Numbered from the stretch's first letter, positions 3,281 through 23,162 are shown. The stretch is DNA of 24,000 bases from Clostridium saccharobutylicum DSM 13864 (GCF_000473995.1 NC_022571.1:2301416-2325415), one strand, 5' to 3'. Made by a program: numbers and translations. The notes: a model not told the origin generated them from the letters alone.

Positions 3281-3323
3281 TAAGTAATACGTAGTTAATT
3301 TAATATTTAAGAAGGTGGTTATA

Positions 3324-4433: not shown

Positions 4434-4459
4434 TAATTCAATTCTATTCAACTGGAAAG

Positions 4460-6349: not shown

Positions 6350-7188
6350 TATTATCGGAGATTTTATATGAGAAGTTTACAGAGTTCATTTATAGAAAAA
6401 CAGGATTATACTACGAGACTAATAAAAAATATTTTGTAGAAAAAAGAATTGAAAATCGCACTATTGAATTAGGTTTTTCAGATTACAAAGAATATTATAA
6501 TCTTATAAAATTCTCTGTTGATGAAACCGAATTTTATAAACTTGTTAATGATTTAACAGTTAATGAAACTTATTTTTTTCGCGATTTTCCACAACTTCAG
6601 AATTTTGCAGAAAAGGTGCTTCCAATTATAGTAAAAGAAAAGGAAAAAAATAATGATTACACCCTCAATATATGGAGCGCGGCTTGTTCTAGAGGTGATG
6701 AACCATATACTTTAGCTATAATACTAAATGAGATGTTAGATAAACCAGAAAAATGGGATATTAAGATAACGGCATCGGATATTAATGATGAAGTTCTTAA
6801 ATTTGCAAAAATAGGTGCATATGATAATAGATCAATAAAAGATGTACCACCGGAGTATCTTAATAAATACTTTGTAAAAAGAAATGAAAAATATTTAGTT
6901 AATTTGAAGATTAGGAAACCATTGGAATTTAAAAGGTTAAATTTTTTTGATTTTAGTGAAATGAAAAAAATGATAAATTATGATGTTATTTTTTGTAGAA
7001 ATGCTCTGATTTATTTTAATGACCAATCAAGAAAAACAGTAATAGATAGTTTTTATTACAGTTTAAATCCAGGAGGTTTTATATTCCTCGGTCATTCAGA
7101 GTCTATAGGAAGAATAAGTTCTGCTTTCCAAGCTAAAAGAATTGGAAGTGGAATAGTTTATTCAAAACCTTTCAGAGAGGATTTGTAA
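6346..7188 (+). CDS. cheR: CheR chemotaxis protein methyltransferase
   Basis: VNETYFFRD, NIWSAACSRGDEPYTLAIIL, ITASDIN, VIFCRNALIYFN and GGFIFLGHSES motifs. The GTG start overlaps the upstream stop (GTGA). Confidence 0.92.
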   Translation: MILSEILYEKFTEFIYRKTGLYYETNKKYFVEKRIENRTIELGFSDYKEYYNLIKFSVDETEFYKLVNDLTVNETYFFRDFPQLQNFAEKVLPIIVKEKEKNNDYTLNIWSAACSRGDEPYTLAIILNEMLDKPEKWDIKITASDINDEVLKFAKIGAYDNRSIKDVPPEYLNKYFVKRNEKYLVNLKIRKPLEFKRLNFFDFSEMKKMINYDVIFCRNALIYFNDQSRKTVIDSFYYSLNPGGFIFLGHSESIGRISSAFQAKRIGSGIVYSKPFREDL

Positions 7189-7190
7189 GT

Positions 7191-7559
7191 ATGAAAAAGA
7201 TATTGATTGTTGATGATTCAGAAATGGTTAGAAATTTTTACAGCTATATTTTAAAAGTGTTTTCCATGGAATCAGATACGGCAGAAAATGGCTTAGTTGC
7301 TTATGAAAAAATATTAGAGAGTGAATTCAGTGTTATTATTACTGATATAAATATGCCAAAAATGAATGGGTATGAATTAGTAGAAGAAATAAGAAGATTA
7401 GAAATAAAGACTCCTATAATAGTAGTATCTACTCAGGATGAGCAAAAAGAAATATTAAAAAGCATGAAAGCTGGCGCGAATATATTTCTTATTAAACCTA
7501 CAGAACCTGATAAATTTATACATACAGTTAAAGAAATCCTTAGAAAAGAGAGTGTGTAG
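7191..7559 (+). CDS. Single-domain response regulator (CheY-like receiver)
   Basis: KILIVDDSEMVR, VIITDINMPKMNGYEL, IIVVSTQ and FLIKP give the full set of receiver acidic pocket, phospho-Asp, Thr/Ser and Lys positions. It lies 2 nt after cheR and 2 nt before cheA. Confidence 0.85.
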   Translation: MKKILIVDDSEMVRNFYSYILKVFSMESDTAENGLVAYEKILESEFSVIITDINMPKMNGYELVEEIRRLEIKTPIIVVSTQDEQKEILKSMKAGANIFLIKPTEPDKFIHTVKEILRKESV

Positions 7560-7561
7560 GT

Positions 7562-9799: not shown

Positions 9800-9817
9800 A
9801 AAGTAGAGGGTTTATAT

Positions 9818-10189
9818 ATGGATAATAAATGTAAAATTTTGATAGTAGATGATTCGCCAATGATTCATGCTTTAATAAAAAGGGCTCTAGAAAATGATGA
9901 ATTTACAATTTGTGGTTCTGGTAAAAACGGCAAGGATGGAGTAGAAAAATACAAAGAATTATCACCTGATATTGTAACAATGGATATAACGATGCCAGTT
10001 ATGGATGGTTTAGAAGCTTCAAAAGAGATAATGAGCATAAATCCAAAAGCAAAGATTGTTATGCTGAGCGCAATGGGAGATGAAGAAATAATTGAGACTG
10101 CTAACCAAATAGGCATAAATTATATAATAAAAAAACCTTTTAACAAAGAAGAACTTCTCGATGTATTAAAAAAAGTACTTGAAGACTAA
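9818..10189 (+). CDS. cheY: CheY response regulator
   Basis: KILIVDDSPMI, PDIVTMDITMPVMDGLEA, IVMLSAMG and IIKKPF. GTAGAGGG RBS upstream. Confidence 0.88.
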   Translation: MDNKCKILIVDDSPMIHALIKRALENDEFTICGSGKNGKDGVEKYKELSPDIVTMDITMPVMDGLEASKEIMSINPKAKIVMLSAMGDEEIIETANQIGINYIIKKPFNKEELLDVLKKVLED

Positions 10190-10226
10190 ATAACTAGATA
10201 AATTTATTTATTATAAGGAGATATTT

Positions 10227-10712
10227 ATGAATACAAGTTTCGTGACAGCATTTACTGATAATATTATTACAACATTTATAAAAATGGCAGATATAAAATT
10301 AACTTCAGATGGTGAAGCGTATAAAGATAATAGTGATATAACTTCATTTGGTATTACGTCTATTATATCTTTTGCAGGAAAAGGCAAGGGTAGATTACTA
10401 TTAGATATAGAAACTAATTTAGCTATGAAAATAGCCAAAAACATAATGGGGGAAGATTATGATAATCCAAGGGATGATATGCTGCTTGCTACAATAGGAG
10501 AATTAAATAACACTATAACAGGTGCAGCTATTACAGATATTAATAATTCTTTTTCAGTAAGTTTAAGACTTTCTCCACCAATAGTATTTACAGGAAAGGA
10601 TGTAGTTATCGCCATACCTAAAATAAACTCTATATCTAGAATTTATACAACTGAGTATGGAAATTTAAAAATGAATATAGCTTTTGAAGGAGGTAGTTTT
10701 GATGGATGTTAA
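10227..10712 (+). CDS. CheX/CheC-family CheY-P phosphatase-like protein (copy 1)
   Basis: About 160 aa with a single CheC-family active-site-like motif, IGELNNTITGAA...LSPPIVF (E-x2-N ... P). AAGGAG RBS lies 7 nt upstream. The size fits CheX rather than two-site CheC. Confidence 0.7.
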   Translation: MNTSFVTAFTDNIITTFIKMADIKLTSDGEAYKDNSDITSFGITSIISFAGKGKGRLLLDIETNLAMKIAKNIMGEDYDNPRDDMLLATIGELNNTITGAAITDINNSFSVSLRLSPPIVFTGKDVVIAIPKINSISRIYTTEYGNLKMNIAFEGGSFDGC

Positions 10713-11163
10713 ATGTATAAATCCATTTCTAGATTCTGTAAAGAGTGTTTTAGAACAGCTGGGAATTACTGATATAAAGATGTCTGGTTTAAACAAAAAA
10801 GAAAAGATGTTTGTTGACTTAGAAATAACATCTATGATAGGTATTGTTGGAGATATAAGAGGAAATATATCATATTCAATGTCAGAGGAGAGCGCTAAAA
10901 AGGTTATTTCTATAATGATGATGGGAATGAGTATTGACAAGATAGATGAAGTTGGTAGAAGTGCAATAGGGGAGCTTACTAATATGATAACAGGTAATGC
11001 ATCTACACTCCTTTATAGCAATGGGTATTTAACTGATATTACACCACCATCAACTATTTTGGGAAAGGATATGTATTTCATTATTAGTACTGTAGAAACA
11101 ATAACTATAGAAATTGATACTTCTATAGGAAGAATAGAAGTAAACATAGGATTAGAAGTATAA
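10702..11163 (+). CDS. CheX/CheC-family CheY-P phosphatase-like protein (copy 2)
   Basis: MDVKCINPFLDSV... with IGELTNMITGNAS...ITPPSTILG. The ATG at 10702 is preferred over the TTG at 10684 because GAAGGAGG (10687-10694) lies about 8 nt upstream. It overlaps the copy 1 stop by 11 nt. Confidence 0.7.
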   Translation: MDVKCINPFLDSVKSVLEQLGITDIKMSGLNKKEKMFVDLEITSMIGIVGDIRGNISYSMSEESAKKVISIMMMGMSIDKIDEVGRSAIGELTNMITGNASTLLYSNGYLTDITPPSTILGKDMYFIISTVETITIEIDTSIGRIEVNIGLEV

Positions 11164-11262
11164 AAACAAAAGCAAAATATATAAATAATTTAATTAGAGA
11201 ATCAGATGTGATCTACTAGAAATTACATAATAAATTAAAATGATTTGGAAGGACGGAAAATA

Positions 11263-12123
11263 ATGAGCAATACTAATGAGAACGCTAAAATTATTAAAAA
11301 CAGAGAAACAATTTTAGAAAAATGGTTACTTGAATTAAACTCACACAAACTTATAGGTAGTGGAGTTTTTCAAGAAAGAGAAGTAGAAGAAATGGGAAGA
11401 AAAATTTTCAATGCTTTTCTGACTATGCTTAAGTTAAATGATGAAATAAATTGGGGGAGTAATGATCTTGTAGAAATAGGCCAGATAGTTGCAGAATTTT
11501 CTAAAAAGATGGCTACAAGAGGGCAGACTCCAACTGTAGCAACTAATTTTATTTATTCTTTAAAGAGTATTGTATTTGAATCTCTTCAAGATTATTATAG
11601 TGATTCTCAAGAACTATTAAATAAGGAAATTATTAGAATATCGGATGTTTTGGATAAAATTGGTTTACGTTCTTTTGATTATTTTGTACAAGAAAGAGAA
11701 GAAATTATTAAAGTGCAACAAGAAGATATGATGGAATTATCTACACCAGTAATAAAAATATGGGATGGGATATTAGCAGTGCCACTTATAGGGACACTAG
11801 ATAGTAAGAGGACCCAGTTGATAATGGAAAAATTGCTAGAAATGATAGTTAATACATCTTCAAAAGTTGCTATAGTAGATATCACAGGAGTTGGAACTGT
11901 AGATACTTTAGTTGCAAATCATCTAATAAAAACGGCGACAGCTACAAAGCTTATTGGTGCCGAGATAATAATTACAGGAATTAGTCCTGTAATAGCTCAA
12001 ACTATAGTTCATTTGGGTGTTGACTTATCAGGAATGATAACAAGGGCAATTATGGAGGATGGAATAAAATTAGCAATGGAAATGTGTAGTTACAAAGTAG
12101 TTAAAGCAATAAATAATATTTAA
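11263..12123 (+). CDS. rsbR: RsbR-type stressosome sensor/scaffold protein (N-terminal RsbR-type helical domain plus C-terminal STAS)
   Basis: The C-terminal STAS closely follows the RsbR pattern: STPVIKIWDGILAVPLIGTLDSKRTQLIMEKLL...VAIVDITGVGTVDTLVANHLIK...GAEIIITGISPVIAQTIVHLGVDL. Thr residues are retained at the positions phosphorylated in B. subtilis RsbRA. The ATG at 11263 is preferred over the TTG at 11245 (GGAAGGA RBS). Confidence 0.85.
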   Translation: MSNTNENAKIIKNRETILEKWLLELNSHKLIGSGVFQEREVEEMGRKIFNAFLTMLKLNDEINWGSNDLVEIGQIVAEFSKKMATRGQTPTVATNFIYSLKSIVFESLQDYYSDSQELLNKEIIRISDVLDKIGLRSFDYFVQEREEIIKVQQEDMMELSTPVIKIWDGILAVPLIGTLDSKRTQLIMEKLLEMIVNTSSKVAIVDITGVGTVDTLVANHLIKTATATKLIGAEIIITGISPVIAQTIVHLGVDLSGMITRAIMEDGIKLAMEMCSYKVVKAINNI

Positions 12124-12136
12124 ATGGAGAGTAGTC

Positions 12137-12553
12137 ATGGGAAAAATTCCAATTATAAAAATAAGAAACTTTTTGATTGTATCACTTGATGGTGATTTAA
12201 CAGATAAATCAGCTATTAAGCTGCAATCTGATATACTTAATAAGGTTTATGAAAATACAGTGAAGGGCGTTTTAATAGATATATCAATTTTGGATATGGT
12301 GGATTCATATCTAGGTAAAATTATAGCTGATATGTCAGCAATGATTAAATTATTAGGAGCAGAAACAGTTCTTGTAGGCATGAAGCCCAATGTAGCTATA
12401 ACACTTGTAGAGATGGGATTTAATATAGACGGAATTGCTACTTCAATGAATGTTGAAACTGGAATAGAAATGTTAGAGAATATAATAAAATCAAATGCAA
12501 TTCAAGAAGTTTTTTTTAATGAATTGTTGAAAGTGAGAAATGATGATATGTAA
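12137..12553 (+). CDS. rsbS: RsbS-type single STAS stressosome protein
   Basis: IPIIKIRNFLIVSLDGDLTD...VLIDISILDMVDSYLGKII...GAETVLVGMKPNVAITLVEMGF. The Ser in DMVDSY aligns with the RsbS phospho-Ser position. TGGAGAG RBS upstream. The stop overlaps the rsbT start. Confidence 0.8.
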   Translation: MGKIPIIKIRNFLIVSLDGDLTDKSAIKLQSDILNKVYENTVKGVLIDISILDMVDSYLGKIIADMSAMIKLLGAETVLVGMKPNVAITLVEMGFNIDGIATSMNVETGIEMLENIIKSNAIQEVFFNELLKVRNDDM

Positions 12554-12938
12554 TGAAATTTCTATTGAGTATGAAAAGGATATAGTTGTTGCAAGGCAAA
12601 AGGCAAGAGAAGTATCCAAAATTCTAGAGTTTGGAATTGTAGATCAAACAAGAATTATTACTGCTGTTAGTGAACTGGCAAGGAATATATTTCTATATGC
12701 ACAAAAAGGAACGGTCAAATTTCAAGAAGTTTTTGAAGATAGAAAGCACGGATTGCAAATTTCTTTTATGGATGATGGGCCTGGAATTGAAGATGTAGAA
12801 TTTGCAATGCAGGGTGGATATTCTAAAGGCCGCAGTATGGGGCTTGGAATGTCTGGAAGTAAGAGATTGATGGATGAATTTTACGTAACTTCATTATTAG
12901 GGAAGGGAACAGAGATCATAATAAAGAAATGGTTGTGA
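12540..12938 (+). CDS. rsbT: RsbT-type serine kinase / switch protein
   Basis: From memory it aligns near full length with B. subtilis RsbT: DIVVARQKAREVSKILEFGIVDQTRIITAVSELARNIFLYA...DDGPGIEDV...GLGMSGSKRLMDEF...GKGTEIIIKKWL. Confidence 0.88.
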   Translation: MMICNEISIEYEKDIVVARQKAREVSKILEFGIVDQTRIITAVSELARNIFLYAQKGTVKFQEVFEDRKHGLQISFMDDGPGIEDVEFAMQGGYSKGRSMGLGMSGSKRLMDEFYVTSLLGKGTEIIIKKWL

Positions 12939-12971
12939 TATTTATTTGATTTTTGATGGTGATACATTTAT

Positions 12972-14018
12972 ATGGAAATATTTGAAATAAGTAACGATTG
13001 GGATATAGGAAAAGTTAGAAGATATATAGCAGAAAAGAGCAAAGAAACAGGATTTTCTAGTATAGAAATAGGAGAAATATCCATTGTAGTTAATGAACTT
13101 TGTTCAAATTTAATAAAGCATCATTCAGTTGAAGGTAAACTAATATTTAAAAAATTAGAAATGAACGGAAGAGTTGGAATTGAAATTATAGCTGAGGATA
13201 AAGGCCCTGGAATTCTTAATGTGGATGAGGTTATAAAAGATGGAATATCTACAAAGGGGACAATGGGTGGGGGACTTGGAGCAACTAAAAGATTAATGGA
13301 CAGCTTTGAACTTTATTCTAGAACAAGTACTAATCGAGGAAAGTATATTGGATATGGACACTTGGGGGGGAATAATAGAATTGGAACTATTGTTATAACT
13401 CAGAAATGGCTTAAAAATAGCTTATATATAGGAACAAAAGAAGTTAAGATAAGTGTAATGAGTAGACCTTATATGGGATGTAAAATAAACGGAGATGTAT
13501 ATTACATTAAAGAATTTAATAATAAAGTAATTTTTGCACTTATAGATGGTTTAGGTCATGGAATAGAGGCTAACAAAGCTGCAATTAGAGCAAAAGAATT
13601 GCTAGAGGAAAATAATTATAAGTCATTAAAGGAATTGCTTTATAGTATTGATAATGGTATGAAAAATACAAGAGGTGCCGTAATTGGTGTATGTATAATT
13701 GATAAGGAGACAAAGAGATTTCAATATGGAAGTATTGGAAATGTTCAGCTAAGGTACATCTTAAATAACAAAACTAAAAAATTTATAGCTACTAATGGTA
13801 CTTTGGGTGTTTCTCTTAATACGAGAGTCAATGTACAGCAAAGCTCATATGAAAATGGAGGAATTATAGCGATGAACACAGATGGCATATCAGATAAATG
13901 GGAGTATGATGAATATTTGGATATACCAGTACATAATCCTGCGGTGCTTTCTAACATGATATTTAGAGATTTTGCAAGAGATAATGATGATGCGACTGTT
14001 TTAGTGGCAGTTATTTAG
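12972..14018 (+). CDS. rsbX: Fusion protein: RsbT/RsbW-like GHKL kinase-type N-domain plus RsbX-like PP2C (SpoIIE-type) phosphatase
   Basis: N-terminal half: IGEISIVVNELCSNLIKH...EDKGPGILNV...GGGLGATKRLMDSFE. C-terminal half: NGDVYYIKEFNNKVIFALIDGLGHGIEANKAA...TRGAVIGVCIID...YGSIGNV...AMNTDGISD...DDATVLVAVI, collinear with B. subtilis RsbX as I remember it. Confidence 0.8.
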   Translation: MEIFEISNDWDIGKVRRYIAEKSKETGFSSIEIGEISIVVNELCSNLIKHHSVEGKLIFKKLEMNGRVGIEIIAEDKGPGILNVDEVIKDGISTKGTMGGGLGATKRLMDSFELYSRTSTNRGKYIGYGHLGGNNRIGTIVITQKWLKNSLYIGTKEVKISVMSRPYMGCKINGDVYYIKEFNNKVIFALIDGLGHGIEANKAAIRAKELLEENNYKSLKELLYSIDNGMKNTRGAVIGVCIIDKETKRFQYGSIGNVQLRYILNNKTKKFIATNGTLGVSLNTRVNVQQSSYENGGIIAMNTDGISDKWEYDEYLDIPVHNPAVLSNMIFRDFARDNDDATVLVAVI

Positions 14019-14028
14019 AGGATAATTT

Positions 14029-15000
14029 ATGAGCAAAGATAGGGAATACCTGATTAGAAGAAATATTGAATTAGAAGAACAAGTTGGAGATCTAACAAAG
14101 GAACTTATTCAAACTAATCACGAAGTACTTAATATTTTACAAGCTTTTGAGGATTTGAATAAAGATATGTTGAGTAACGATAAAGAAAAAAATGAGTTTC
14201 TGACTAAACTTAAGATTTCTAACAAAGAACAGTTAGAAAAAATTAAAATGCAGGAAAATGCTTTAATCCAGGCTGATAAGTTAGCTTCCTTAGGGCAGCT
14301 TATTGCTGGAATAGCTCATGAAATCAATAATCCAAATACGTATATAAGAGCAAATATAGAACTTTTGCAAAAATATTGGAAGCTGTTAGAAAAAAAAATA
14401 AGTGTAGATGAAGGGGATTTCTGTACATCAATTGTAAGCGATGTTCCAAACATTATGACTTCCATGTATAAAGGAACAGAGAGAATAATGGAAATAATAA
14501 GTGCACTTAAAGCTTTTTCGAAAGAAGAAAAGTTATTTTATGAAAAAATAAATATAAATCAATTTATAGAGGAAGCGTACAAATTAATTAAGGTTGAATT
14601 AACAAAAAATAAGGTAATCTTGATTAATAAAGTTAATCAAGACGGATATGAAATAAATGCATCTAAGCAGAAAATAGAACAAGTTCTAATTAACCTATTT
14701 TTAAATTCGATTAAAGCAATAAAACATAAAAAAGAAGAAAATGGTCAAATTATTATATTTGCATCAGAAGATAAGGATATTCTTAATATTTCTATAAAGG
14801 ATAATGGTTGCGGAATAAATAAAGAGCATTTAGATATGATTTTTAATCCATTTTTCACTACTCACCAAGAGGATGGTGGAACTGGACTCGGATTATCTAT
14901 AGTACACGGAATTATGAAGGAACACGGGGGAAGTATTAAGGTACAGAGCAAAATAAATGAAGGTACAGAGTTCACTCTTATATTTCCTAAGGGTAGGTGA
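14029..15000 (+). CDS. Cytoplasmic histidine kinase without a recognisable sensor domain (coiled-coil N-terminus, HisKA, HATPase)
   Basis: H-box LASLGQLIAGIAHEINNPNTYI (His97). ATPase motifs QVLINLFLNSIKA, IKDNGCGI, FNPFFTT and GGTGLGLSIVHGIMKEHGGSI. Residues 1-80 are charged and heptad-like, and no TM segment is present. Confidence 0.88.
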   Translation: MSKDREYLIRRNIELEEQVGDLTKELIQTNHEVLNILQAFEDLNKDMLSNDKEKNEFLTKLKISNKEQLEKIKMQENALIQADKLASLGQLIAGIAHEINNPNTYIRANIELLQKYWKLLEKKISVDEGDFCTSIVSDVPNIMTSMYKGTERIMEIISALKAFSKEEKLFYEKININQFIEEAYKLIKVELTKNKVILINKVNQDGYEINASKQKIEQVLINLFLNSIKAIKHKKEENGQIIIFASEDKDILNISIKDNGCGINKEHLDMIFNPFFTTHQEDGGTGLGLSIVHGIMKEHGGSIKVQSKINEGTEFTLIFPKGR

Positions 15001-15006
15001 TAAAAT

Positions 15007-16431
15007 ATGAATCAAAACGAGCTTTTAGAAGTTTACTTTGAAGAGACTTGTGAAAATTTAGATGAAGCAGAAAGATGTATGATAGGTTTGGAAAAGTCAT
15101 TTTGTATGGAAGAGCTCAACAGTCTTTTTAGGTGTATTCATACAATTAAAGGTAGCTCAGCAGCTGTAGACTTTAATGAAATTTCAAGCTTAGCGCATAA
15201 ATTAGAAGATATATTAAACCATGTGCGTGATGGGGATTTAGAGTTTAATTCAGATAATTCTAATCTTTGCATTAGTTCCATAGATAAGCTTTTGGAATTA
15301 TTTAATTTTCGTAGACAGTATAGAAATGATGATATTGATTATGACATAATAAAAAATACTTTAGATATTGAAGAACGTATGGATCAGCTAATAAGTAGTG
15401 TAAGTGAAGATACAGGAGATATAGAAGATAAACAACCGATTATTATAACAAATTCTCAAAAGGAAGATAATTATAATGAAAAGTTTTATCAGACATATTT
15501 CGTTCATATACTATTTGATGTTGAAGATATGATGCAATCAATAACAAGTTTTATGATTATTAATTCAATGAATGAAAATGGGAAGATATGCTATTCATAT
15601 CCAGAAGTTGATTTTATGATATCAATGCAAATTAATGAACCAGTTAGTCATTACGAATGTCTATTTAAAACAAATCTTGATAGTGAACAATTATTTAATA
15701 AATTAGATATTCCATTTATAAAAAAAATTAAGATTATTGATGTTACTAATGCAATCTCATCAAGAGAAGAATTAACAGATTATACTGAAAAGGTATGTAT
15801 TTTATTTGCTTTATTAAATAATTTTCTATCTATAGGAAAATACTATAACAATGTTTCTTTTAGTAAAAAAGCAAAGAAGGATATAAATAATTTATATGAA
15901 AACTGTGAAAAAATTTTAGAATCGAATGAGTTTAGCGAAGAGATAGTAATGCTAATTAAAGAATTGAAATCATTTCTAGATATACCAATATACATGATTG
16001 ATAACAACTCTTGCAAGGAGTTATTTAACAGTACAAATAGTTTATATGAATGCTTGATTTATAAAATATATAATACTTTTAAGAATAAAATAATTTTTAA
16101 ATACGTTGAACTTAAACTGGACAAGCAAAATATCGAAAGATTAGATAATATATCTAGTAAGCTTAATAAAAAAATATTTAAATATGTGCTTCTTGATGTA
16201 AGTGAAGTAGAAATACTTGAAAGTGATGAGATTAAGAAATTAATTAAAGTTAATAATTCATTGGAAGAAGAAGGTATTGAACTGGTTATTATAAATGGAG
16301 GAAAATATAAAAAGAGATTATACAATATATTTGAAGCCATAGGAGACTTTGATAATATTAGGCAGTGCAATAGTGAAATAAATGCAGTTTTACTTATAAA
16401 AAATAATAAAGAAAGGTATGAGGAATTATGA
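15007..16431 (+). CDS. Protein with a CheA-P1-like HPt domain at the N-terminus and a STAS-like domain at the C-terminus. The middle roughly 250 aa is unassigned.
   Basis: N-terminus: LNSLFRCIHTIKGSSAAVDFNEISSLAHKLEDILNHVRDGDL (His45, CAT 15139-15141). C-terminus: KYVLLDVSEVEILESDEIKKLIKVNNSLEEEGIELVIINGG...LYNIFEAIGDFDNI...SEINAVL, which follows the SpoIIAA/STAS layout. GGTAGGTGA RBS upstream. The stop overlaps the next gene. Confidence 0.6.
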   Translation: MNQNELLEVYFEETCENLDEAERCMIGLEKSFCMEELNSLFRCIHTIKGSSAAVDFNEISSLAHKLEDILNHVRDGDLEFNSDNSNLCISSIDKLLELFNFRRQYRNDDIDYDIIKNTLDIEERMDQLISSVSEDTGDIEDKQPIIITNSQKEDNYNEKFYQTYFVHILFDVEDMMQSITSFMIINSMNENGKICYSYPEVDFMISMQINEPVSHYECLFKTNLDSEQLFNKLDIPFIKKIKIIDVTNAISSREELTDYTEKVCILFALLNNFLSIGKYYNNVSFSKKAKKDINNLYENCEKILESNEFSEEIVMLIKELKSFLDIPIYMIDNNSCKELFNSTNSLYECLIYKIYNTFKNKIIFKYVELKLDKQNIERLDNISSKLNKKIFKYVLLDVSEVEILESDEIKKLIKVNNSLEEEGIELVIINGGKYKKRLYNIFEAIGDFDNIRQCNSEINAVLLIKNNKERYEEL

Positions 16432-16841
16432 AAAAGGAATATAAAATACTGATAATCGATGATGAAGAAGAGATTTTATTATCATTAAAAAAGAATCTTA
16501 TACTTGAAGGATATAATGTAGAGACATGCAATGATTCAGTAGAAGCACTGGAAATGATAAAAAACAATAAGTTTCATATTGTAATAACTGATATTGTAAT
16601 GCCTAATATGAATGGTATAGATCTTTTGAAAGCAGCTAAAGCTTATGATGCATTGACACAAGTAATAATGATGACTGGATATTCAACAATGGAAATAACA
16701 ATACAATCTTTAGAATTCGGAGCAAATGATTATATTCTTAAACCTTTTAAAAGTATTGAATATATTATTGAAATTATAGATTACTCTATACAGAAGTTAG
16801 AGAGATGGAGAGAGTCCATAAGGGGACTTGTATCAAAATAA
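16428..16841 (+). CDS. Stand-alone response regulator receiver with a short helical C-terminal tail
   Basis: KILIIDDEEEIL, HIVITDIVMPNMNGIDLL, VIMMTGYS and YILKPF. The ATG overlaps the upstream stop (ATGA). Confidence 0.88.
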   Translation: MKKEYKILIIDDEEEILLSLKKNLILEGYNVETCNDSVEALEMIKNNKFHIVITDIVMPNMNGIDLLKAAKAYDALTQVIMMTGYSTMEITIQSLEFGANDYILKPFKSIEYIIEIIDYSIQKLERWRESIRGLVSK

Positions 16842-16890
16842 AATTATAAGTAAATAAAAATCAATTGCAGGGCATAAAGGAGAAAAAAAT

Positions 16891-17118
16891 ATGACTCAGT
16901 TTGATGATGAAATATTATTAAAAGTATTAAAAACTAATGATACAGAAATGTACACATTAGCAGAAATTCATAAGATAATATTACAAAATGATATTAAATG
17001 CAGTATAGAAGAAATTAGAAAAAAAATTCATATTTTATTGTGCGATGGTTACTTGGGTTTTGAGTTAATAAGTGATGGAATTAAAATGTATTTCGTAATT
17101 TTTTCTCCTGAATATTAA
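16891..17118 (+). CDS. Hypothetical 75-aa protein
   Basis: AAGGAG RBS lies 8 nt upstream of the ATG, and it is co-directional with the operon. I recognise no motif in it. Confidence 0.45.
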   Translation: MTQFDDEILLKVLKTNDTEMYTLAEIHKIILQNDIKCSIEEIRKKIHILLCDGYLGFELISDGIKMYFVIFSPEY

Positions 17119-17318
17119 TTTAAGGCACATTCAAAAAAATAACAAGTCCATTTACCAGACTATTTTCCATCATACTGCATTGGTAAATTGACCTAATAGA
17201 TCCGCTATGAGGGCGATTTGCCTCTTTGGTTGATGAAAAATTATCTATGGTAACTTTGGACCTGTTATTTATTTTCATGTGCCTAAATAAGTATATTTTT
17301 ACAAGATAGGAGGTTAGT

Positions 17319-18083
17319 ATGATTAATGAACCTTTGAAATATGCAGTACTTAATAATAAAGGTGGTGTGGGAAAAAGTACAATTTCTGTACATATTGCAC
17401 ATGGACTTGCCCTTCTAGGGAATAAAGTATTGTTGATTGATATGGATGGACAAAATGATGCAAGTTTATTTCTTGGCATTTCTGATCAAGATTATAAAAA
17501 GACATTTTACGATTTGATTAACAAAAGAGAGGATGTTGAACTTTCAGAGTGCATAATTAATGTAAGGGATAATTTGGACTTACTCCCATCTAAGCACATA
17601 GACATTATAAATACAGAGTTTTATAGAGAATCAAGAATTGATTTAATACTAAAAGAAAAATTACAAGGCATAAATACCATGGAGTATAACTATCTTATTA
17701 TTGACTGTGGACCTCAACGAAGTAAAGTTAATGATGCAGTTTTATGCTTTGTTGATAACATAATAGTTCCAGTTCAGGTAGAATCAGCATCCGTTAGAGC
17801 TATTGGAAATATATATGAGTATCTATCTGACTTAAGATTGAATCCAGAGATGATAGAGTTAATAATACCTAATATGTATGATCAAAGAACAAGTGAATCT
17901 AGGGAGAACATGCAGCTGCTTAAAGAATTATTTTCAGAAAGTAATTTTTTGGCTGAACCAATCAATAGAAGAGTAAAGATTACAGAAGCAGGGAAATTAG
18001 GGAAAACCGTATATGAATATGATAAAGATTCTGCTAAACAGTTTTTTAAAATAGTTGAGAGGCTGGTAAGCACAAATGCCTAG
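17319..18083 (+). CDS. ParA/MinD-family (deviant Walker A) ATPase
   Basis: VLNNKGGVGKSTISVHIAHGLALLGNKVLLIDMDGQ (KGGxGKS with signature Lys), YNYLIIDCGP (Walker B-like). TAGGAGG RBS upstream. The 3' end overlaps the next gene by 8 nt. Confidence 0.88.
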   Translation: MINEPLKYAVLNNKGGVGKSTISVHIAHGLALLGNKVLLIDMDGQNDASLFLGISDQDYKKTFYDLINKREDVELSECIINVRDNLDLLPSKHIDIINTEFYRESRIDLILKEKLQGINTMEYNYLIIDCGPQRSKVNDAVLCFVDNIIVPVQVESASVRAIGNIYEYLSDLRLNPEMIELIIPNMYDQRTSESRENMQLLKELFSESNFLAEPINRRVKITEAGKLGKTVYEYDKDSAKQFFKIVERLVSTNA

Positions 18084-19881
18084 AAGTAAGGTAAATAAAG
18101 AGGTATTAAACAGTATTGATAAGATAAAACAGGAAATTAATAAAAAGAAACAAAAGGCTATAGAATCACATAATTCCAATGAATTTATACTTGAAAAAGA
18201 TAAGTTAAGTAATGATAATTTAGAGTTGTCCAATAATAAAAGTATTGATAAAGTCAATATTAATATTGGTGAAGGAAAAAAAGACATCAATAAAGCAATC
18301 AAAAGTACAAAGAAAGTACATAAAGCTGCCAATAAAGAAACTAAAAGTGCTAGTAAAAGAACTAAAAGTGTGGCAAAAAAGTGTGAAAGTGTAGATGAAA
18401 AAAATAAAAATAGTAGTGAAAATGCAGATAAAAGGCAAGGCGATGAAACCAAGTATGTAATTTTTGTGGTGAACAATGAAGAATATGCAATAGAATTAGT
18501 TAATGTAAAAGAGATAATTAGGATACCAAAAATTAAGAAAGTACCTAATTCTGTTTATGTTGAAGGAGTATTTAATTTAAGAGGGGAACTTGTTACTATA
18601 ATTGATATTCATAAGAGATATAACATATCTAAAAGTGAATATAAAGATAATAGCAGAGTCATAGTTATGGAATTTGGCGGCTGTATTGTAGGCATTATTG
18701 TTGATAAAGTTTTACAGGTGTTAGCTGTTCATAAATCATATATAAAATTAATATGTGAAAATACTGATGATACGAAGGAAGGCTATATTGATGGCATTAT
18801 AATGATTGAAAATGGAAAAAGATTAATTATGATTATGGATGCACAAAGTATCATAAATATAAATGGTCTTGGAAGTATTTTAGTCAATGCATATAAAAAA
18901 TCAAATGAAAAAGTATCAGCTTTTATTAAGGATATTGAAGAAAATGAGCAGCTAATAATTTTTAGTATAAATGATGTTGAGTATGCATTTCATATATCCG
19001 AAATAAAGGAAGTTATTAGAATTCCAAATGTTGTAAAGGTACCAAATTCTTCGGATTTTATAGAAGGTATTATTTCATTAAGAAATGAACTCATTGGAGT
19101 AGTAAACCTTGCTAAAATTATAAATATAGATAGTGAAAGTATCAGCAAAGACCGAAGCATACTCATAGTTAATACAGGAAATTTAATATATGGAGTAATT
19201 GTTGATAAAGTTTCAGAAGTAAAATTGGTTTCAAAAAAAGATTTATTAAAGCCATGGCAAGTTGTTGGAAATATTGATGTTAAAATAGTGAAAGAATTTG
19301 CTAATATGGATAATGGTAAAAGAGTAGTTACAATATTGGATCCATATAATATTTTAAATCTTGAGGAAATACAATGGAATTTTAAGGTTAATGAAATCAC
19401 TGAAATTGTTTCAAATAATTATAATAAATCTACATTAGATTTAAAAAAAATAATAAAAAGTATTGTGATTTTTAAAATAGAAAATGAAGAATATGGAATT
19501 AGTATTGATTTTGTTCAAGAAATTAATACAATTAATAAAATTACAAGCTTCCCTAATAGACAAAATGCTGTTGAAGGATTAATAAATTTAAGAGGAGATA
19601 TGATTCCATTAATTAATTTACGAACATTGTTTGGTTTAGAAATTCAGAGTAAAGATTCTTATTTCAAAACTTTAATTGTAAAAATAAATAATAAGAAAGT
19701 AGGAATTCGCATTGATTCAGCATCAGAAGTTCTAAACCTTTCAGAGGATATATTTCAAGATTATTTTGAAGATTTAAATGCAGATAATAATAGAAGATAT
19801 GTAGAGGGAATTATAAAGCCGAATGATGGTAAACGAATTATTCTTTATCTTAACATAAATGAAATTTTAGATTTTATATAA
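18076..19881 (+). CDS. Protein with a roughly 125-aa Lys-rich N-terminal tail followed by three CheW domains
   Basis: Tail: MPRSKVNKEVLNSIDKIKQEINKKKQKAIE...KSTKKVHKAANKETKSASKRTKSVAKK. CheW cores: YVIFVVNNEEYAIELVNVKEIIRI...VEGVFNLRGELVTIID; LIIFSINDVEYAFHISEIKEVIRI...IEGIISLRNELIGVVN; IVIFKIENEEYGISIDFVQEINTI...VEGLINLRGDMIPLIN. Confidence 0.85.
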   Translation: MPRSKVNKEVLNSIDKIKQEINKKKQKAIESHNSNEFILEKDKLSNDNLELSNNKSIDKVNINIGEGKKDINKAIKSTKKVHKAANKETKSASKRTKSVAKKCESVDEKNKNSSENADKRQGDETKYVIFVVNNEEYAIELVNVKEIIRIPKIKKVPNSVYVEGVFNLRGELVTIIDIHKRYNISKSEYKDNSRVIVMEFGGCIVGIIVDKVLQVLAVHKSYIKLICENTDDTKEGYIDGIIMIENGKRLIMIMDAQSIININGLGSILVNAYKKSNEKVSAFIKDIEENEQLIIFSINDVEYAFHISEIKEVIRIPNVVKVPNSSDFIEGIISLRNELIGVVNLAKIINIDSESISKDRSILIVNTGNLIYGVIVDKVSEVKLVSKKDLLKPWQVVGNIDVKIVKEFANMDNGKRVVTILDPYNILNLEEIQWNFKVNEITEIVSNNYNKSTLDLKKIIKSIVIFKIENEEYGISIDFVQEINTINKITSFPNRQNAVEGLINLRGDMIPLINLRTLFGLEIQSKDSYFKTLIVKINNKKVGIRIDSASEVLNLSEDIFQDYFEDLNADNNRRYVEGIIKPNDGKRIILYLNINEILDFI

Positions 19882-19940
19882 AATTCTATTCATTTGGTGA
19901 AAATTAATTTAAATATAATCAAAGAAAATAGTATGATAAT

Positions 19941-20087
19941 TAGGGCGTGTCTGAGAACTATTTATTACTATATAAATAGTCAAATTAATGTGATTTACTA
20001 ATAGAAAACAACCATTAATTAGAGTATGAATCTCTTGTTTTCTGGTTCTTTCTTAATTTTATTTGTTAAGTTTTTAGACACGTCCTA
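19941..20087 (+). promoter_or_regulatory. Candidate structured 5' leader RNA upstream of the third cheY (closing stem plus two internal hairpins)
   Basis: GGGCGTGTCTGA (19943-19954) pairs with TTAGACACGTCC (20074-20085), extendable to about 17 bp. Two of the 12 core pairs (a third in the extension) are G-U on the plus-strand transcript and would be A-C mismatches on the minus strand. Internal hairpins: ACTATTTAT/ATAAATAGT (19957-19965/19972-19980) and AGAAAACAA/TTGTTTTCT (20003-20011/20035-20043). A TATAAT hexamer at 19914-19919 is a possible -10, but its -35 is weak. Confidence 0.35.
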
Positions 20088-20128
20088 GTTTAAAATTAAA
20101 AAAAATTTTTATACGAGGAGAAAATTAA

Positions 20129-20482
20129 ATGAAAAAAGTTTTGATTGTTGATGATGCAGTTTATATGAGACTTTCTTTAAGGGACATATTAGAAAGAAAT
20201 GGATTTGAAGTTATAGGGGATGCGGTAAATGGAATAGATGCTATTAATAAATATAAAATGTTAATCCCAGACATTGTAACTATGGATATAACAATGCCAG
20301 AAATGGATGGAGTTAAAGCATTACAGGAAATAAAAAAGTTAGATCCAAATGCTAAGGTAGTAATAATATCTGCAATGGGTCAAGAATCTATTGTTAGAGA
20401 AGCAATAATGAATGGTGCTAAAGGATTTATAATAAAACCTTTTAAAGAAGAAAAAGTTATTCAGTCATTAAGTAAGATATAG
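20129..20482 (+). CDS. cheY: CheY response regulator
   Basis: KVLIVDDAVYMR, PDIVTMDITMPEMDGVKA, VVIISAMG and FIIKPF. GAGGAG RBS upstream. Confidence 0.9.
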   Translation: MKKVLIVDDAVYMRLSLRDILERNGFEVIGDAVNGIDAINKYKMLIPDIVTMDITMPEMDGVKALQEIKKLDPNAKVVIISAMGQESIVREAIMNGAKGFIIKPFKEEKVIQSLSKI

Positions 20483-20514
20483 CATTAATTGATGATGTTA
20501 AACTAAGTATTTAC

Positions 20515-20558
20515 TTTTCCAATCTTATAAGTAATAACTTACTTATAAGATTGGAAAA
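20515..20558 (+). terminator. Perfect 20-bp-stem hairpin 33 nt after the cheY stop (likely end of the locus, atypical terminator)
   Basis: TTTTCCAATCTTATAAGTAA (20515-20534) is the exact reverse complement of TTACTTATAAGATTGGAAAA (20539-20558), with a 4-nt loop. No T-run follows the stem on either strand, so it is not a canonical intrinsic terminator. Confidence 0.45.
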
Positions 20559-20714
20559 CCGTTGTAATTCATTGATTTTTATAAAAAATATCTCCTAATA
20601 AGCTTATATTGAGGTGTAGGAATAATTTTATATTTTCAATGAAAAAACTTTATGAAGATGATACTTTTATTGTACGCGTCAAAGAATCGACGCGTAGCGG
20701 GAGTATAATTTAAG

Positions 20715-20757
20715 TGATAAAATAAACCCAACAGAAAAATTCATATTCTCTGTTGGG
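20715..20757 (-). terminator. Hairpin with trailing T-run on the minus strand
   Basis: CCCAACAGA (20727-20735) pairs with TCTGTTGGG (20749-20757). On the minus strand the stem is followed by TTTATTTTATC. No minus-strand gene to be terminated is obvious apart from read-out from the IS region. Confidence 0.35.
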
Positions 20758-20784
20758 TACAATTTTATATAGAAATAATTATTT

Positions 20785-20792
20785 GGTAGTAA
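20785..20792. repeat. Left copy of the 8-bp target-site duplication of the IS256-family element
   Basis: GGTAGTAA lies immediately outside the left IR and is identical to 22299-22306. Confidence 0.7.
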
Positions 20793-22298
20793 GGGGATGT
20801 AGCTAGATTTGTGTAAAACAAATCTACTACATTCTTTTTTTGTATTGTTTGATGGTAGATTTGGAATAATATACTTGAAAATAATAAGGGAGGATTCCAA
20901 ATGAAAGTACCAGATATTAATTATCAAGAAGAAATTAAAAAGTGTAAAAGCATGGATGATGTTGTAGGTAAGAATGGATTGATGCAAAAGCTATTAAAAG
21001 ATGTTATGCAACAATTGCTTGAAGCGGAAATGGATGAACATTTAGGCAGAGAGAAGTATGAAAGAGCCGATAACGAAAGTGAAAAGAATTATCGAAATGG
21101 TTATTCTAAAAAAGATGTTAGAAGTAGTTACGGGGAGGTACCTTTAGATATTCCACGAGACAGAAAATCAGAGTTTGAGCCAAGAGCAATTCGAAAGTAT
21201 GAAACAGAATGTAGTGAACTGGATAAAAAAATAATTGGTTTGTATGCACGTGGAATGTCTACAAGAGATATTCAATCCGAACTCGAAGAGCTCTATGGTA
21301 TAGATGTCTCTCCATCAATGATATCGAAAATAACAGATAAAGTGATGGACGCAGCAGCAGAATGGCAAAACAGAATGTTAGACCCAGTATATCCTATAGT
21401 ATATATGGATGCGGTTCATTTTAAGGTAAGAGATGAACATAGAATTGTTTCTAAAGCAGCATATATTTGTATGGGAGTTGATATGAATGGCTATAAAGAT
21501 ATTTTAGGAATTTGGATAGGCGAAGCTGAAGGTGCAAAATTTTGGTTAAGTGTATGCAATGATTTAAATAATCGTGGCGTTAAAGACATCTTAATTGCAT
21601 GTATGGATGGATTAAGAGGCTTACCAGACGCAATTAGAGCTGTTTTTCCAAAGGTATGTATTCAAAATTGTATAATACATCAAATAAGAAATTCGATAAA
21701 ATATGTCTCTTATAAAAACAGAAAAGAATTTATGAAAGATTTGAAGCTTGTTTATAAAGCAGATACAGAGGAAATTGCGCTAGCGCAGCTCGATGAGTTG
21801 AAGAAAAAATGGGATAATCTTTATGATTCTGTAGTGGATTCATGGTATGAAAACTGGGATAAATTATCTACATATTTTTCTTATACTAAAGAAATTAGAA
21901 AGATGATTTATACTACCAATACACTTGAAGGTTTTAATAGGCAACTAAGAAAATTCACTAAGATTAGAACTGTATTTCCAACTGATGATTCATTACGAAA
22001 GTCATTGTATTTAGCAACAGATCAAGTTATGAAAAAATGGACTTCACCACTTCCAAACTGGGGTGTTACACTTTTAAAATTTGAAATAATGTTTAAAGAA
22101 AGAATCAACGAAGCGTTAGCTGTATAGTTTGTCCATTTTATGAAATTATGCATATATTATCTTTTTTGGCACAAACTAAAAATATAATAATATCCAGTTT
22201 TAGTATTTCAAAAGAAAGATAAAAATATAACTGGAAATAAAATTTCCAGTTATATAACATATCAAATATTCAATTTACACAAGTTATTCTACATTCTC
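20793..22298 (+). mobile_element. IS256-family insertion sequence, apparently intact (1506 bp)
   Basis: It has a single transposase ORF. The imperfect terminal inverted repeats are GGGGATGTAGCTAGATTTGTGTAAAA (20793-20818) and the reverse complement of 22273-22298 (GAGAATGTAGAATAACTTGTGTAAAT), matching at 18 of 26 positions. It is flanked by an identical 8-bp direct repeat, GGTAGTAA. Confidence 0.85.
20901..22127 (+). CDS. IS256-family (Mutator-type) transposase
   Basis: 408 aa. LLEAEMDEHLGREKYER...NYRNGYSKK...IIGLYARGMSTRDI...YPIVYMDAVHFKVR...LIACMDGLRGLP...IQNCIIHQIRNS...YTTNTLEGFNRQLRK are family-typical blocks. GGGAGG RBS upstream. Confidence 0.93.
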   Translation: MKVPDINYQEEIKKCKSMDDVVGKNGLMQKLLKDVMQQLLEAEMDEHLGREKYERADNESEKNYRNGYSKKDVRSSYGEVPLDIPRDRKSEFEPRAIRKYETECSELDKKIIGLYARGMSTRDIQSELEELYGIDVSPSMISKITDKVMDAAAEWQNRMLDPVYPIVYMDAVHFKVRDEHRIVSKAAYICMGVDMNGYKDILGIWIGEAEGAKFWLSVCNDLNNRGVKDILIACMDGLRGLPDAIRAVFPKVCIQNCIIHQIRNSIKYVSYKNRKEFMKDLKLVYKADTEEIALAQLDELKKKWDNLYDSVVDSWYENWDKLSTYFSYTKEIRKMIYTTNTLEGFNRQLRKFTKIRTVFPTDDSLRKSLYLATDQVMKKWTSPLPNWGVTLLKFEIMFKERINEALAV

Positions 22299-22417: not shown

Positions 22418-22756
22418 TCATATTTTAGGAATCTTATTAGAGGAAGGCATAAGATTTTCCAAGCTATCGCTATAGGATAAATCTATCTTTGATAGATTAT
22501 CAAATAGATAGACTAAATACCTTTCTACAACTAGATTATTAGCTTTGGCACTTTCAACAATGCTATAAATATTAGCACTTGAAGTTGCACCTTTAGCAGT
22601 ATTTGCAAACAAGAAATTTTTTCTTCCTATAACAAAAGGTTTAATCGCTCTTTCAGCCGCATTATTATCAACTTCTAAACACCCATCTAATAATACATTT
22701 TTTAATCCTGGTAAATGCTTTTTAGCATAATCAAGTGCCTTACCTAAAGGGCTTCT
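22418..22756 (-). pseudogene. 3' fragment of the IS66-family transposase gene tnpC (no start codon, N-terminal part deleted)
   Basis: The minus-strand frame is open from 22756 and reads RSPLGKALDYAKKHLPGLKNVLLDGCLEVDNNAAERAIKPFVIGRKNFLFANTAKGATSSANIYSIVESAKANNL... This matches the conserved IS66 transposase C-terminus (DG.LEIDNN.AER.I.P...GRKN.LF....GA..SA.IYS..E.AK.N.L). Confidence 0.75.
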
Positions 22757-22866
22757 TTATCTAAATCAGCGATTATAACAATCATAATTAATCCATCACT
22801 GCTTTTTCTTAAATCTGTGTAGCCGCAGGCAAGATAAACTTTTTCTACTTTATCTATATTTAACAT
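22744..22866 (-). pseudogene. Truncated IS66 tnpB (orf2), first 40 codons only
   Basis: The minus-strand translation MLNIDKVEKVYLACGYTDLRKSSDGLIMIVIIADLDKEAL* carries the characteristic YLACGxTDxRKSxDGL motif, then stops at a TAG (22746-22744). Confidence 0.65.
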
Positions 22867-23162
22867 TTTGCCATCAGCTCCTTTATTATTGAAGATATCA
22901 ATAATATTTCACTTGAAGGGATATGTATTTTGGCTTTTCTAATTGATATTATAACTTCGTTTGCGGCTGATGTCTCAGTACTTTTTATAATGTTTGCATC
23001 TTCATTTAAAGATACAGCATGAAAAATTACAGTTTCTTTATTTATGTTTAGCTTTTTCTTGAAATAATGAAATTGACTTTTAGTCATATTTTTTCCTTTG
23101 CAAAAATTACTTAATCCCATATTTCCATTATAGGCATAAAATTCGTTTATAGTTTTTTTCAT
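22860..23162 (-). CDS. IS66-family accessory protein TnpA-like (orf1)
   Basis: 100 aa. Position and layout match IS66 orf1: about 100 nt inside the IR, an HTH-like N-terminus (GLSNFCKGKNMTKSQFHYFKKKL), and a stop overlapping the tnpB ATG (ATGTTAA). Confidence 0.6.
   Translation of the reverse strand: MKKTINEFYAYNGNMGLSNFCKGKNMTKSQFHYFKKKLNINKETVIFHAVSLNEDANIIKSTETSAANEVIISIRKAKIHIPSSEILLISSIIKELMAKC

Follow-up and report, generated by a model that had tools for sequence, protein, structure and literature searches.

A ParA-type ATPase gene overlapping a tailed triple-CheW gene in the F9 chemosensory cluster of Clostridium saccharobutylicum: a candidate array-positioning module

What does a ParA-type ATPase, close kin to plasmid partition proteins, do at the end of a chemosensory (che) gene cluster? 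The question is raised by a stretch of 24,000 nucleotides (nt) from Clostridium saccharobutylicum DSM 13864 (GCF_000473995.1 NC_022571.1:2301416-2325415; the whole stretch is called the window here, with positions counted from its first letter). The window is chromosomal DNA, and within its che cluster parA (17319–18083) overlaps the next gene, which encodes a protein with a Lys-rich tail and three CheW domains (tailed cheW3, 18076–19881); both genes, and the features within them given below, are on the plus strand. A model's sequence-only reading of the window had seen in this pair a Firmicute counterpart of ParC/ParP or PpfA/TlpT, which act on chemoreceptor arrays. That idea has gained ground, as the pairing recurs in Clostridia and Bacilli at the ends of F9-class clusters and the partner proteins share an N-terminal peptide. 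From the anatomy of the genes, their conservation, the structure of the ParA family and the homology of the motif, each established below, we consider it probable, though well short of certain, that parA and tailed cheW3 form an accessory positioning or segregation module of an F9-class chemosensory system, with a protein array and not DNA as its cargo.

The parA product (254 aa; AGGAGG stands 7 nt 5' of its ATG) is a small type-Ib-like ATPase of the ParA/MinD family. It matched Pfam AAA_31 (E = 5e-36, 124.6 bits) and CbiA (E = 2e-19, 70.3 bits), both above cut-off, and none of the curated NCBIfam models reached its cut-off, the best being ParA_partition with 93 bits against 180. There is no N-terminal helix–turn–helix extension, the Walker A motif beginning at residue 13. 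This deviant Walker A, NKGGVGKST (within NNKGGVGKST; 17355–17381), holds the signature lysine K14 and the catalytic K19 and, like the A' motif DMDGQND (D41, D43) and the Walker B motif IIDCGP (D129), is intact and invariant in the family alignment. Also invariant are R217, R218, K220, K226 and K229. In the segment RRVKITEAGKLGKT (17967–18008), K220 aligned with the Arg of the 'PRNVRLAEA' motif of Soj (Thermus thermophilus Soj, 1wcv), an Arg implicated in non-specific DNA binding (Bacillus subtilis Soj R189).

The ATG of tailed cheW3 (18076) lies inside ...ACAAATGCCTAG and the parA stop codon, TAG, occupies 18081–18083, giving an overlap, read directly from the sequence, of 8 nt (ATGCCTAG, 18076–18083), just as the sequence-only reading had it for the KGGVGKS ParA gene and its neighbour. 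The encoded protein (601 aa, starting MPRSKVNK) consists of an N-terminal peptide that is a putative ParA contact, a disordered linker and three CheW domains, and the Lys-rich tail and triple-CheW architecture claimed for it earlier were both borne out, with a tail of 124 aa and Pfam CheW matching in three stretches (E = 3.5e-85). The domain limits, taken from a purpose-built CheW hidden Markov model (HMM) and backed by Pfam and AlphaFold2, are residues 124–264 (18445–18867), 290–432 (18943–19371) and 460–600 (19453–19875). AlphaFold2, run on a 34-sequence alignment, modelled the three domains confidently (predicted local distance difference test, pLDDT, about 80–90), placed a helix at residues 8–32 (pLDDT 65–71) and left residues 33–122 disordered (pLDDT 25–31). 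Tailed CheW3 was colinear across all three domains with the untailed CheW3 encoded earlier in the cluster (1756–3225), at 36% identity, and judged by this alignment it is a paralogue of that canonical CheW3.

Is this adjacency a peculiarity of one genome? We sampled loci of the ParA family from GTDB genomes (at least about 11 loci) and from metagenomes, using family-specific C-terminal patterns, and obtained 94 ParA open reading frames (ORFs), 72 of them distinct. The best 120 database matches to the window's ParA were 64–100% identical to it and came from Clostridia, Paenibacillaceae and other Bacilli, the C. beijerinckii protein being 89% identical. Family members were 49–100% identical to each other, 49–69% between subclades, and 21–31% identical to outgroup ParAs. 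Every family ParA with a readable downstream gene had one of two kinds of partner: a CheW-type protein (37 distinct ParAs; three CheW domains in most cases, one or two in some) or a ribbon–helix–helix (RHH)-type protein (34 distinct ParAs). The partner gene overlapped the parA stop by 8–35 nt at every family locus with both genes. Pfam RHH_1 was matched by two of the three RHH-type partners tested (E = 6e-7 and E = 0.002); the third matched NCBIfam model PRK11675 ('LexA regulated protein', of CopG/RHH type) weakly, with an E of 0.004 that falls short of the cut-off.

In neighbour-joining trees (about 250 columns, 100 bootstraps), the 72 distinct ParAs were monophyletic against the outgroups in 100/100 bootstraps, and 100/100 also separated, in the unrooted tree, the 37 CheW-linked from the 34 RHH-linked members with zero exceptions; the window's ParA belongs to the CheW-linked subclade. 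At every CheW-linked locus with enough flanking sequence, ParA stood at the 3' end of an F9-type cluster, after CheA or CheX, and parA with an overlapping tailed cheW was present in Aneurinibacillus, a metagenome-assembled Bacillus genome, C. bowmanii, C. beijerinckii and many metagenomic Bacillota. Since all 37 distinct CheW-linked members overlap their partner and stand at a che cluster end, the adjacency is not a coincidence.

The RHH-linked subclade leads to plasmids. ParAs 67–70% identical to that of the window were found on 14 Clostridium plasmids in PLSDB, and a C. botulinum plasmid carries a 67%-identical ParA with an overlapping gene for a 137-aa protein that has an RHH-like C-terminus. 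The sequence-only reading had counted grouping with partition proteins, together with a ParB partner nearby, against a role in array positioning. The window's ParA does group with plasmid ParAs, but neither a ParB gene, an RHH gene nor centromere repeats were found beside it: no ParB gene was found in the window; an RHH HMM run across the window found no real RHH gene, the gene downstream of parA being CheW3; and iterated centromere-like repeats were absent from 16800–20200, where the only repeat is a single pair of 31-nt inverted repeats flanking a 168-bp insertion. One match to the RHH HMM, at 18245–18394, was rejected as a compositional artefact, an out-of-frame, Lys-rich, low-complexity ORF. 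Because the ParB/RHH slot is filled by CheW3, the plasmid kinship of the ParA supports the positioning idea and does not refute it.

The same kinship could be taken to mean that the pair is a relic of a plasmid partition locus that integrated and is decaying, lying by chance beside che genes and insertion sequences (ISs). The family does occur on plasmids, an IS256-family transposase gene and IS66 fragments lie just downstream, and the 168-bp inverted-repeat element lies just 5' of parA. However, both ORFs are intact and the catalytic residues of the ParA invariant, the partner is a fusion of the peptide to CheW domains and not a broken RHH gene, RHH and ParB genes are missing from the window, and the parA–cheW order is found at F9 cluster ends in 37 distinct sequences from two Bacillota classes. 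This conserved synteny effectively refutes the idea of a remnant.

What, then, do the two kinds of partner have in common? The answer lies in the first residues of the tail. Across the 34 tailed CheW3 homologues the N-terminal consensus was MAGKxSKKxxDNFEKIKREMxxKKQKA; the window's peptide reads MPRSKVNKEVLNSIDKIKQEINKKKQKA, and its K16, K18 and E20 were invariant among the 34. A motif N[FL]EK[IM]KxEMxxKKxKA was common to the N-termini of CheW-type and RHH-type partners, the latter following the same pattern, for instance, in MPNPKEQNNFEKLKIEMLAKKRQAEE and MANKGKGDLNYNFEMLKEQMKKKREIAE and, in a more divergent subgroup, ..EKFDDLLNDVKEKKEKSK. We trained an HMM on the N-termini of RHH partners only and scored it on those of the CheW partners, which reached a median of 20.6 bits and a maximum of 31.5 (n = 34). 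The best true background, from 5621 other ORF N-termini, was 7.2 bits and was exceeded by 32 of the 34; 30 of the 34 scored above 10.2 bits, compared with 4 of 3400 composition-matched shuffles. On these scores, the N-terminal peptide of the CheW partners is homologous to the N-terminus of the RHH partners in the sister subclade. In tailed CheW3 it forms the basic conserved motif of residues 1–32 (MPRSKVNKEVLNSIDKIKQEINKKKQKAIESH, 18076–18171), which from sequence and model is presumed to bind ParA and stimulate its ATPase.

The rest of the tail is a different matter. Residues 1–124 include 28 Lys (22.6%, against 9% in the remainder of the protein) and have a net charge of +11, and the sequence-only reading had proposed this whole basic tail as a contact to ParA or the nucleoid. 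The motif part of that proposal survives; the other 90 or so residues (33–123, 18172–18444) make up a Lys-rich, low-complexity, disordered linker that is lineage-specific. Across tailed CheW homologues the linker joining the motif to the first CheW domain varied from 19 to 173 aa and in net charge from −19 to +7 (median −7), being acidic in most, with the window's the most basic and a strongly basic linker common to C. saccharobutylicum and C. beijerinckii. As only the first ~30 residues are conserved while the linker is variable, those ~30 residues are the conserved functional element, and as the linker is acidic in most homologues, any contact of the tail with the nucleoid would be lineage-specific at best.

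Inside the linker lies an imperfect 21-bp tandem repeat (18334–18375; AAAGAAACTAAAAGTGCTAGT / AAAAGAACTAAAAGTGTGGCA) encoding KETKSAS/KRTKSVA. The duplication reported earlier is present at these positions, but it is weak and incidental, lying in low-complexity Lys-rich coding sequence: Tandem Repeats Finder gave period 21, 2.2 copies, 76% matches and a score of 52, barely over the default threshold, and a repeat search gave 88% identity over 17 nt. At the protein level the repeat is found in C. beijerinckii too (KAPKSTS/KRNKSVR). Both it and the Lys-rich stretch are, by comparison of the homologues, embellishments of the C. saccharobutylicum/C. beijerinckii lineage.

These features bear on the suggestion that the Lys-rich tail itself tethers the array to the nucleoid, in the manner of FrzCD, and that this species could dispense with ParA or use it only secondarily. 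The linker has a charge of +8 over residues 66–124, with histone-like KxxK repeats, and this is kept in C. beijerinckii; FrzCD uses a basic N-terminal tail to bind the nucleoid (PMC5716589). The acidic median of the homologues' linkers and the unfailing retention of ParA and the N-terminal motif tell against it, and direct tethering, which could be an add-on in C. saccharobutylicum and C. beijerinckii, cannot explain the conserved module. We regard it as very unlikely to be the main function of the pair.

Which array would such a module serve? The genes upstream, all on the plus strand, begin with a DosM-type soluble receptor with two signalling-domain tips (1–1737; Pfam MCPsignal E = 2e-61, 3 stretches), followed by the canonical, untailed, triple-CheW CheW3 of F9 systems (1756–3225; Pfam CheW E = 2e-109, 3 stretches) and the remainder of the F9 core as assigned by Pfam, namely CheB, a HEAT-repeat protein, CheR, CheY, CheA, CheY, CheX and CheX (3315–11163). 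After tailed CheW3, on the same strand, comes a CheY-like response regulator (20129–20482; Pfam Response_reg E = 9e-28), which is kept in C. beijerinckii. The DosM tips have the sequence EAARAGExGRGF at residues 112 and 412, and the protein has no hydrophobic segment. Its reading frame is free of stops from the window's first base to the first ATG at 37, and the gene probably begins upstream of the window; the Aneurinibacillus homologue has 646 aa.

DosM and CheW3 define the F9 class, whose arrays in Vibrio cholerae are double-layered and purely cytoplasmic (PMC7534058, PMC9321776). The gene order in the window agreed with the F9 entry for C. saccharobutylicum in table S6 of PMC9321776 ([DosM W3 B. 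R Y A Y X X]; W3 Y), and by its genes the window is the F9-class chemosensory cluster of this organism; by analogy with V. cholerae, its array would be cytoplasmic. The same table gives Paenibacillus naphthalenovorans as [DosM W3 B. Y R A. W3], where the unnamed '.' before the second W3 is the slot that ParA holds in every CheW-linked locus we sampled. These are the two species with a second CheW3 among the 72 F9 species tabulated. V. cholerae cluster I/F9 has the same signature components and order, DosM, CheW3, CheB, x, CheR, CheY, CheA but, like the 69 other species in the table, no second CheW3.

ParA/MinD ATPases are recruited and stimulated by the short charged N-termini of partners whose remainder binds the cargo (PMC11407121, PMC10241942), and ParP (PMC5706961) and TlpT (PMC3964821) act in this way for chemoreceptor arrays. 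The ParC/ParP systems of Vibrio, Pseudomonas and Halothiobacillus, which belong to class F6, resemble the present pair in that their che cluster holds a ParA-like gene, with the adaptor gene overlapping it directly downstream (PMC5706961, PMC7534058, PMC10241942). ParP also has an N-terminal region that interacts with the ATPase, a linker and a C-terminal CheW-type domain that enters the array; the likeness is one of architecture only. Whereas ParP has a single divergent AIF domain, the adaptor here is an F9 CheW3 paralogue with three canonical CheW domains, and the array is of the F9 cytoplasmic kind and not the polar membrane array of F6. The nearest relatives of the ParA are Firmicute RHH-partnered ParAs, including plasmid-borne ones, which suggests that it was recruited independently of ParC.

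Could the pair nonetheless work as ParC/ParP does, with ParA tethering the array through tailed CheW3 to a landmark at the pole or septum and the nucleoid playing no part? The gene architecture is that of ParC/ParP and of Hn0722/Hn0723 in Halothiobacillus neapolitanus. The cluster, however, is of the cytoplasmic-array class F9, while ParC/ParP go with polar membrane arrays; the nearest relatives (49–69% identical) are RHH-partnered ParAs, some on plasmids, and the matrix of type-Ib systems is the nucleoid; and the Soj-type basic residue is invariant. Nor is a polar landmark evident: ORF and Pfam annotation found no HubP- or FimV-like gene in the window. We therefore think landmark anchoring unlikely.

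Another comparable pair is PpfA/TlpT of Rhodobacter (Cereibacter) sphaeroides. There, a ParA-like ATPase whose gene lies in a cytoplasmic chemoreceptor cluster's operon is contacted in a ParB-like manner by TlpT's N-terminus, with the nucleoid serving as the matrix (PMC3964821, PMC10924463). TlpT, however, is a cytoplasmic chemoreceptor, whereas the partner here is a CheW scaffold and not a methyl-accepting chemotaxis protein, and the R. sphaeroides cluster has split CheA3/CheA4 in place of DosM and CheW3. With chemosensory class and adaptor both different, membership of the present pair in either the ParC/ParP or the PpfA/TlpT group is not supported. A further parallel is the McdA/McdB system for carboxysomes, in which a ParA-type ATPase spreads a protein cargo over the nucleoid and the N-terminus of the adaptor is charged (PMC11407121); cargo and adaptor are other than here, and McdA lacks the signature lysine, in contrast to the canonical KGGVGKS of the window's ParA.

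In gene organization there is a likeness to type-Ib partition systems (ParF/ParG of TP228, delta/omega of pSM19035), which have a small ParA without an N-terminal helix–turn–helix, a partner gene overlapping the parA stop and a partner with a flexible basic N-terminal peptide. Clostridium plasmid loci made up of ParA, RHH protein and a TIGR04540 gene share the N-terminal motif and have the ParA that is 67–70% identical. In comparison with these, the chromosomal module has three CheW domains in place of the RHH domain, no centromere-like repeats and no TIGR04540 upstream gene. At several RHH-linked loci, including the C. botulinum plasmid, the upstream gene encodes about 91–103 aa and overlaps the parA start (L007:1629-1940, L013:7745-8020, L015:7742-8023 in our sample). 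That of L007 matched the TIGR04540/CLB_0814 family with 85.5 bits (cut-off 50), and the small gene looks like a conserved third component of these loci; no such gene was seen 5' of parA in CheW-linked loci.

Taken as a positioning module, the pair could work as follows. DosM, canonical CheW3 and CheA would build the array, as in V. cholerae F9, and tailed CheW3 would enter its baseplates through its three CheW domains. The basic N-terminal helix of ~30 residues, carried on a flexible linker, would thus be presented many times over. ParA–ATP dimers would coat the nucleoid, as the conserved Soj-type basic residues and the kinship with plasmid ParAs suggest; the helix would bind ParA and stimulate its ATPase, and hydrolysis would release the ParA. 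In this way the array would be tethered to, and spread over, the nucleoid and passed to both daughter cells like a plasmid partition complex. The sequence fits both a dynamic diffusion ratchet and a static, PpfA-like tether. As to origin, the module may derive from, or share a recent common ancestor with, a Clostridial type-Ib plasmid partition system of ParA and RHH protein, the RHH DNA-binding domain having been exchanged for CheW domains and the ParA-contact peptide kept. For a recent switch of ParA cargo between DNA and protein array, in either direction, with both states extant in sister subclades that are 49–69% identical, we judge the case to be evenly balanced.

ParA might instead control assembly, its ATP-dependent binding sequestering and releasing tailed CheW3 and so setting the timing, size or baseplate composition of the arrays. 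ParP promotes array formation besides localization (PMC5706961), ParC of H. neapolitanus is needed for cluster assembly (PMC10241942), F9 arrays form conditionally (PMC7534058, PMC9321776), and in C. saccharobutylicum the module adjoins an insertion of stressosome-like and histidine kinase (HK) genes that is described below. On the other side, the kinship of the ParA with plasmid partition proteins and the retained ParB-like N-terminal peptide suggest a cycle of transport or tethering, and the Rsb/HK insertion, found in no CheW-linked locus beyond this one and that of C. beijerinckii, falls outside the conserved module. We give control of assembly or stoichiometry a small chance of being the principal role, and it is possible that such a role goes together with positioning.

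Several points weigh against the positioning module and its proposed origin. In the window itself the motif (NSIDKIKQEINKKKQKA) has diverged: this N-terminus scores only 9.1–9.9 bits against the RHH-derived HMM, which is over all of the true background but under the 99.9th percentile of the shuffles (10.2 bits). With so low a score, its homology to the RHH partners is transitive, running through the other CheW-type tails. The root within the ParA family is weakly supported (52–61%), and at 52% for rooted monophyly of the CheW-linked members the direction of the RHH/CheW swap is not established. Most F9 clusters lack the module, a second CheW3 occurring in only 2 of the 72 species, so F9 arrays can form without it. 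The nucleoid binding suggested for the ParA comes from one aligned residue, K220, and the cellular role and every physical interaction proposed here are read from sequence and genomic context.

The surroundings of the pair hold further elements. Between the CheX genes and parA, a stressosome-like module (11245–16841) encodes RsbR (RsbRD_N and STAS domains), RsbS (STAS), an RsbT-like kinase and a fusion of HATPase_c_2 with a SpoIIE phosphatase, together with a histidine kinase, an Hpt-P2 protein and a stand-alone receiver. C. beijerinckii has the insertion in common; it is absent from all other CheW-linked loci, where ParA comes directly after CheA or CheX, and it is possible that it provides input to, or output from, the F9 system. 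The Hpt-P2 protein (474 aa, 15007–16431) is encoded behind the histidine kinase gene and resembles a CheA fragment without its kinase; homologues of 467–632 aa were seen in many other F9-type clusters, between CheB and CheR.

Directly 5' of parA is orf75 (75 aa, 16891–17118), 80% identical in C. beijerinckii. AlphaFold2 gave it three helices and a beta-hairpin in a winged-helix fold (pLDDT 75). It matched nothing in Pfam or NCBIfam, and its matches in the PDB were to generic winged helix–turn–helix proteins (RTP, PadR, Fur, TubR), none of them significant (best E = 0.011). We rejected orf75 as a ParB-like partner: it is confined to the C. saccharobutylicum/C. beijerinckii lineage and so lies outside the conserved module. 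The 168-bp element (17120–17287) takes up the greater part of the 200-nt gap that separates orf75 from parA; it is present as a single copy in the window and bounded by 31-nt imperfect inverted repeats (17120–17150 / 17257–17287) that are 84% complementary. As the same gap is only 33 nt long in C. beijerinckii, the element is an insertion, resembling a miniature inverted-repeat transposable element or a large hairpin. Rfam gave zero matches in the gap 5' of parA, and a scan of 16400–20900 for promoter-like sites found 34 against 33.5 in shuffles, which equals expectation and is uninformative in such AT-rich DNA.

Directly 3' of the cluster's last CheY gene is the IS256-family transposase gene (Transposase_mut, 408 aa; 20901–22127), and 22418–23162 holds small ORFs on the minus strand, with a C-terminal fragment of IS66. 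Several C. saccharobutylicum strains had the same IS arrangement; C. beijerinckii, in which feoAB comes next, does not. In two C. saccharobutylicum assemblies, L001 (GCA_013149765.1) and L002, frameshifts split the genes for CheA, the phosphatase, the histidine kinase, Hpt-P2 and tailed CheW3, while the ParA is identical; these splits seem more likely to be assembly errors than pseudogenes. In Lutispora thermophila (L023:8001-8814), parA and the cheW downstream of it are split into several short ORFs, at the end of a che cluster that is otherwise intact, which looks like a decayed copy of the module.

Parts of this picture were known. ParA homologues in che operons, including that of C. beijerinckii, were catalogued in 2010 (PMC2829493), and a table published in 2022 (PMC9321776) lists the second CheW3 of C. 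saccharobutylicum. The gene-order table of the latter paper leaves the ParA gene unnamed, and we found no discussion of ParA in that paper. In the literature searched we found no paper that links the che-operon ParA with the second CheW3, mentions the tail or connects the ATPase with plasmid ParA/RHH systems.

As the principle is familiar from ParC/ParP, PpfA/TlpT and McdAB, the module would extend known biology and not overturn it. What is new here is that two cargo states stand side by side in one tight ParA family, where earlier inference of cargo switching came mostly from distant comparisons, and this offers a testable model of cargo re-targeting through the swap of an adaptor domain. If the model is right, a peptide of ~20 residues would be a portable 'ParA handle' that could be grafted onto arbitrary cargos, and its short conserved core (K16, K18 and E20 in the window's numbering) is defined for mutagenesis and engineering. 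For the F9 systems, the module would explain the second CheW3 in this lineage and suggests a likely function for the unnamed '.' gene in the P. naphthalenovorans table entry, the C. saccharobutylicum entry having the second CheW3 only. It would also offer a first approach to the positioning and inheritance of F9 cytoplasmic arrays, and a genetically tractable solventogenic Clostridium, or a Paenibacillus, with a dedicated module could be useful for a class of array that has been structurally characterized in V. cholerae.

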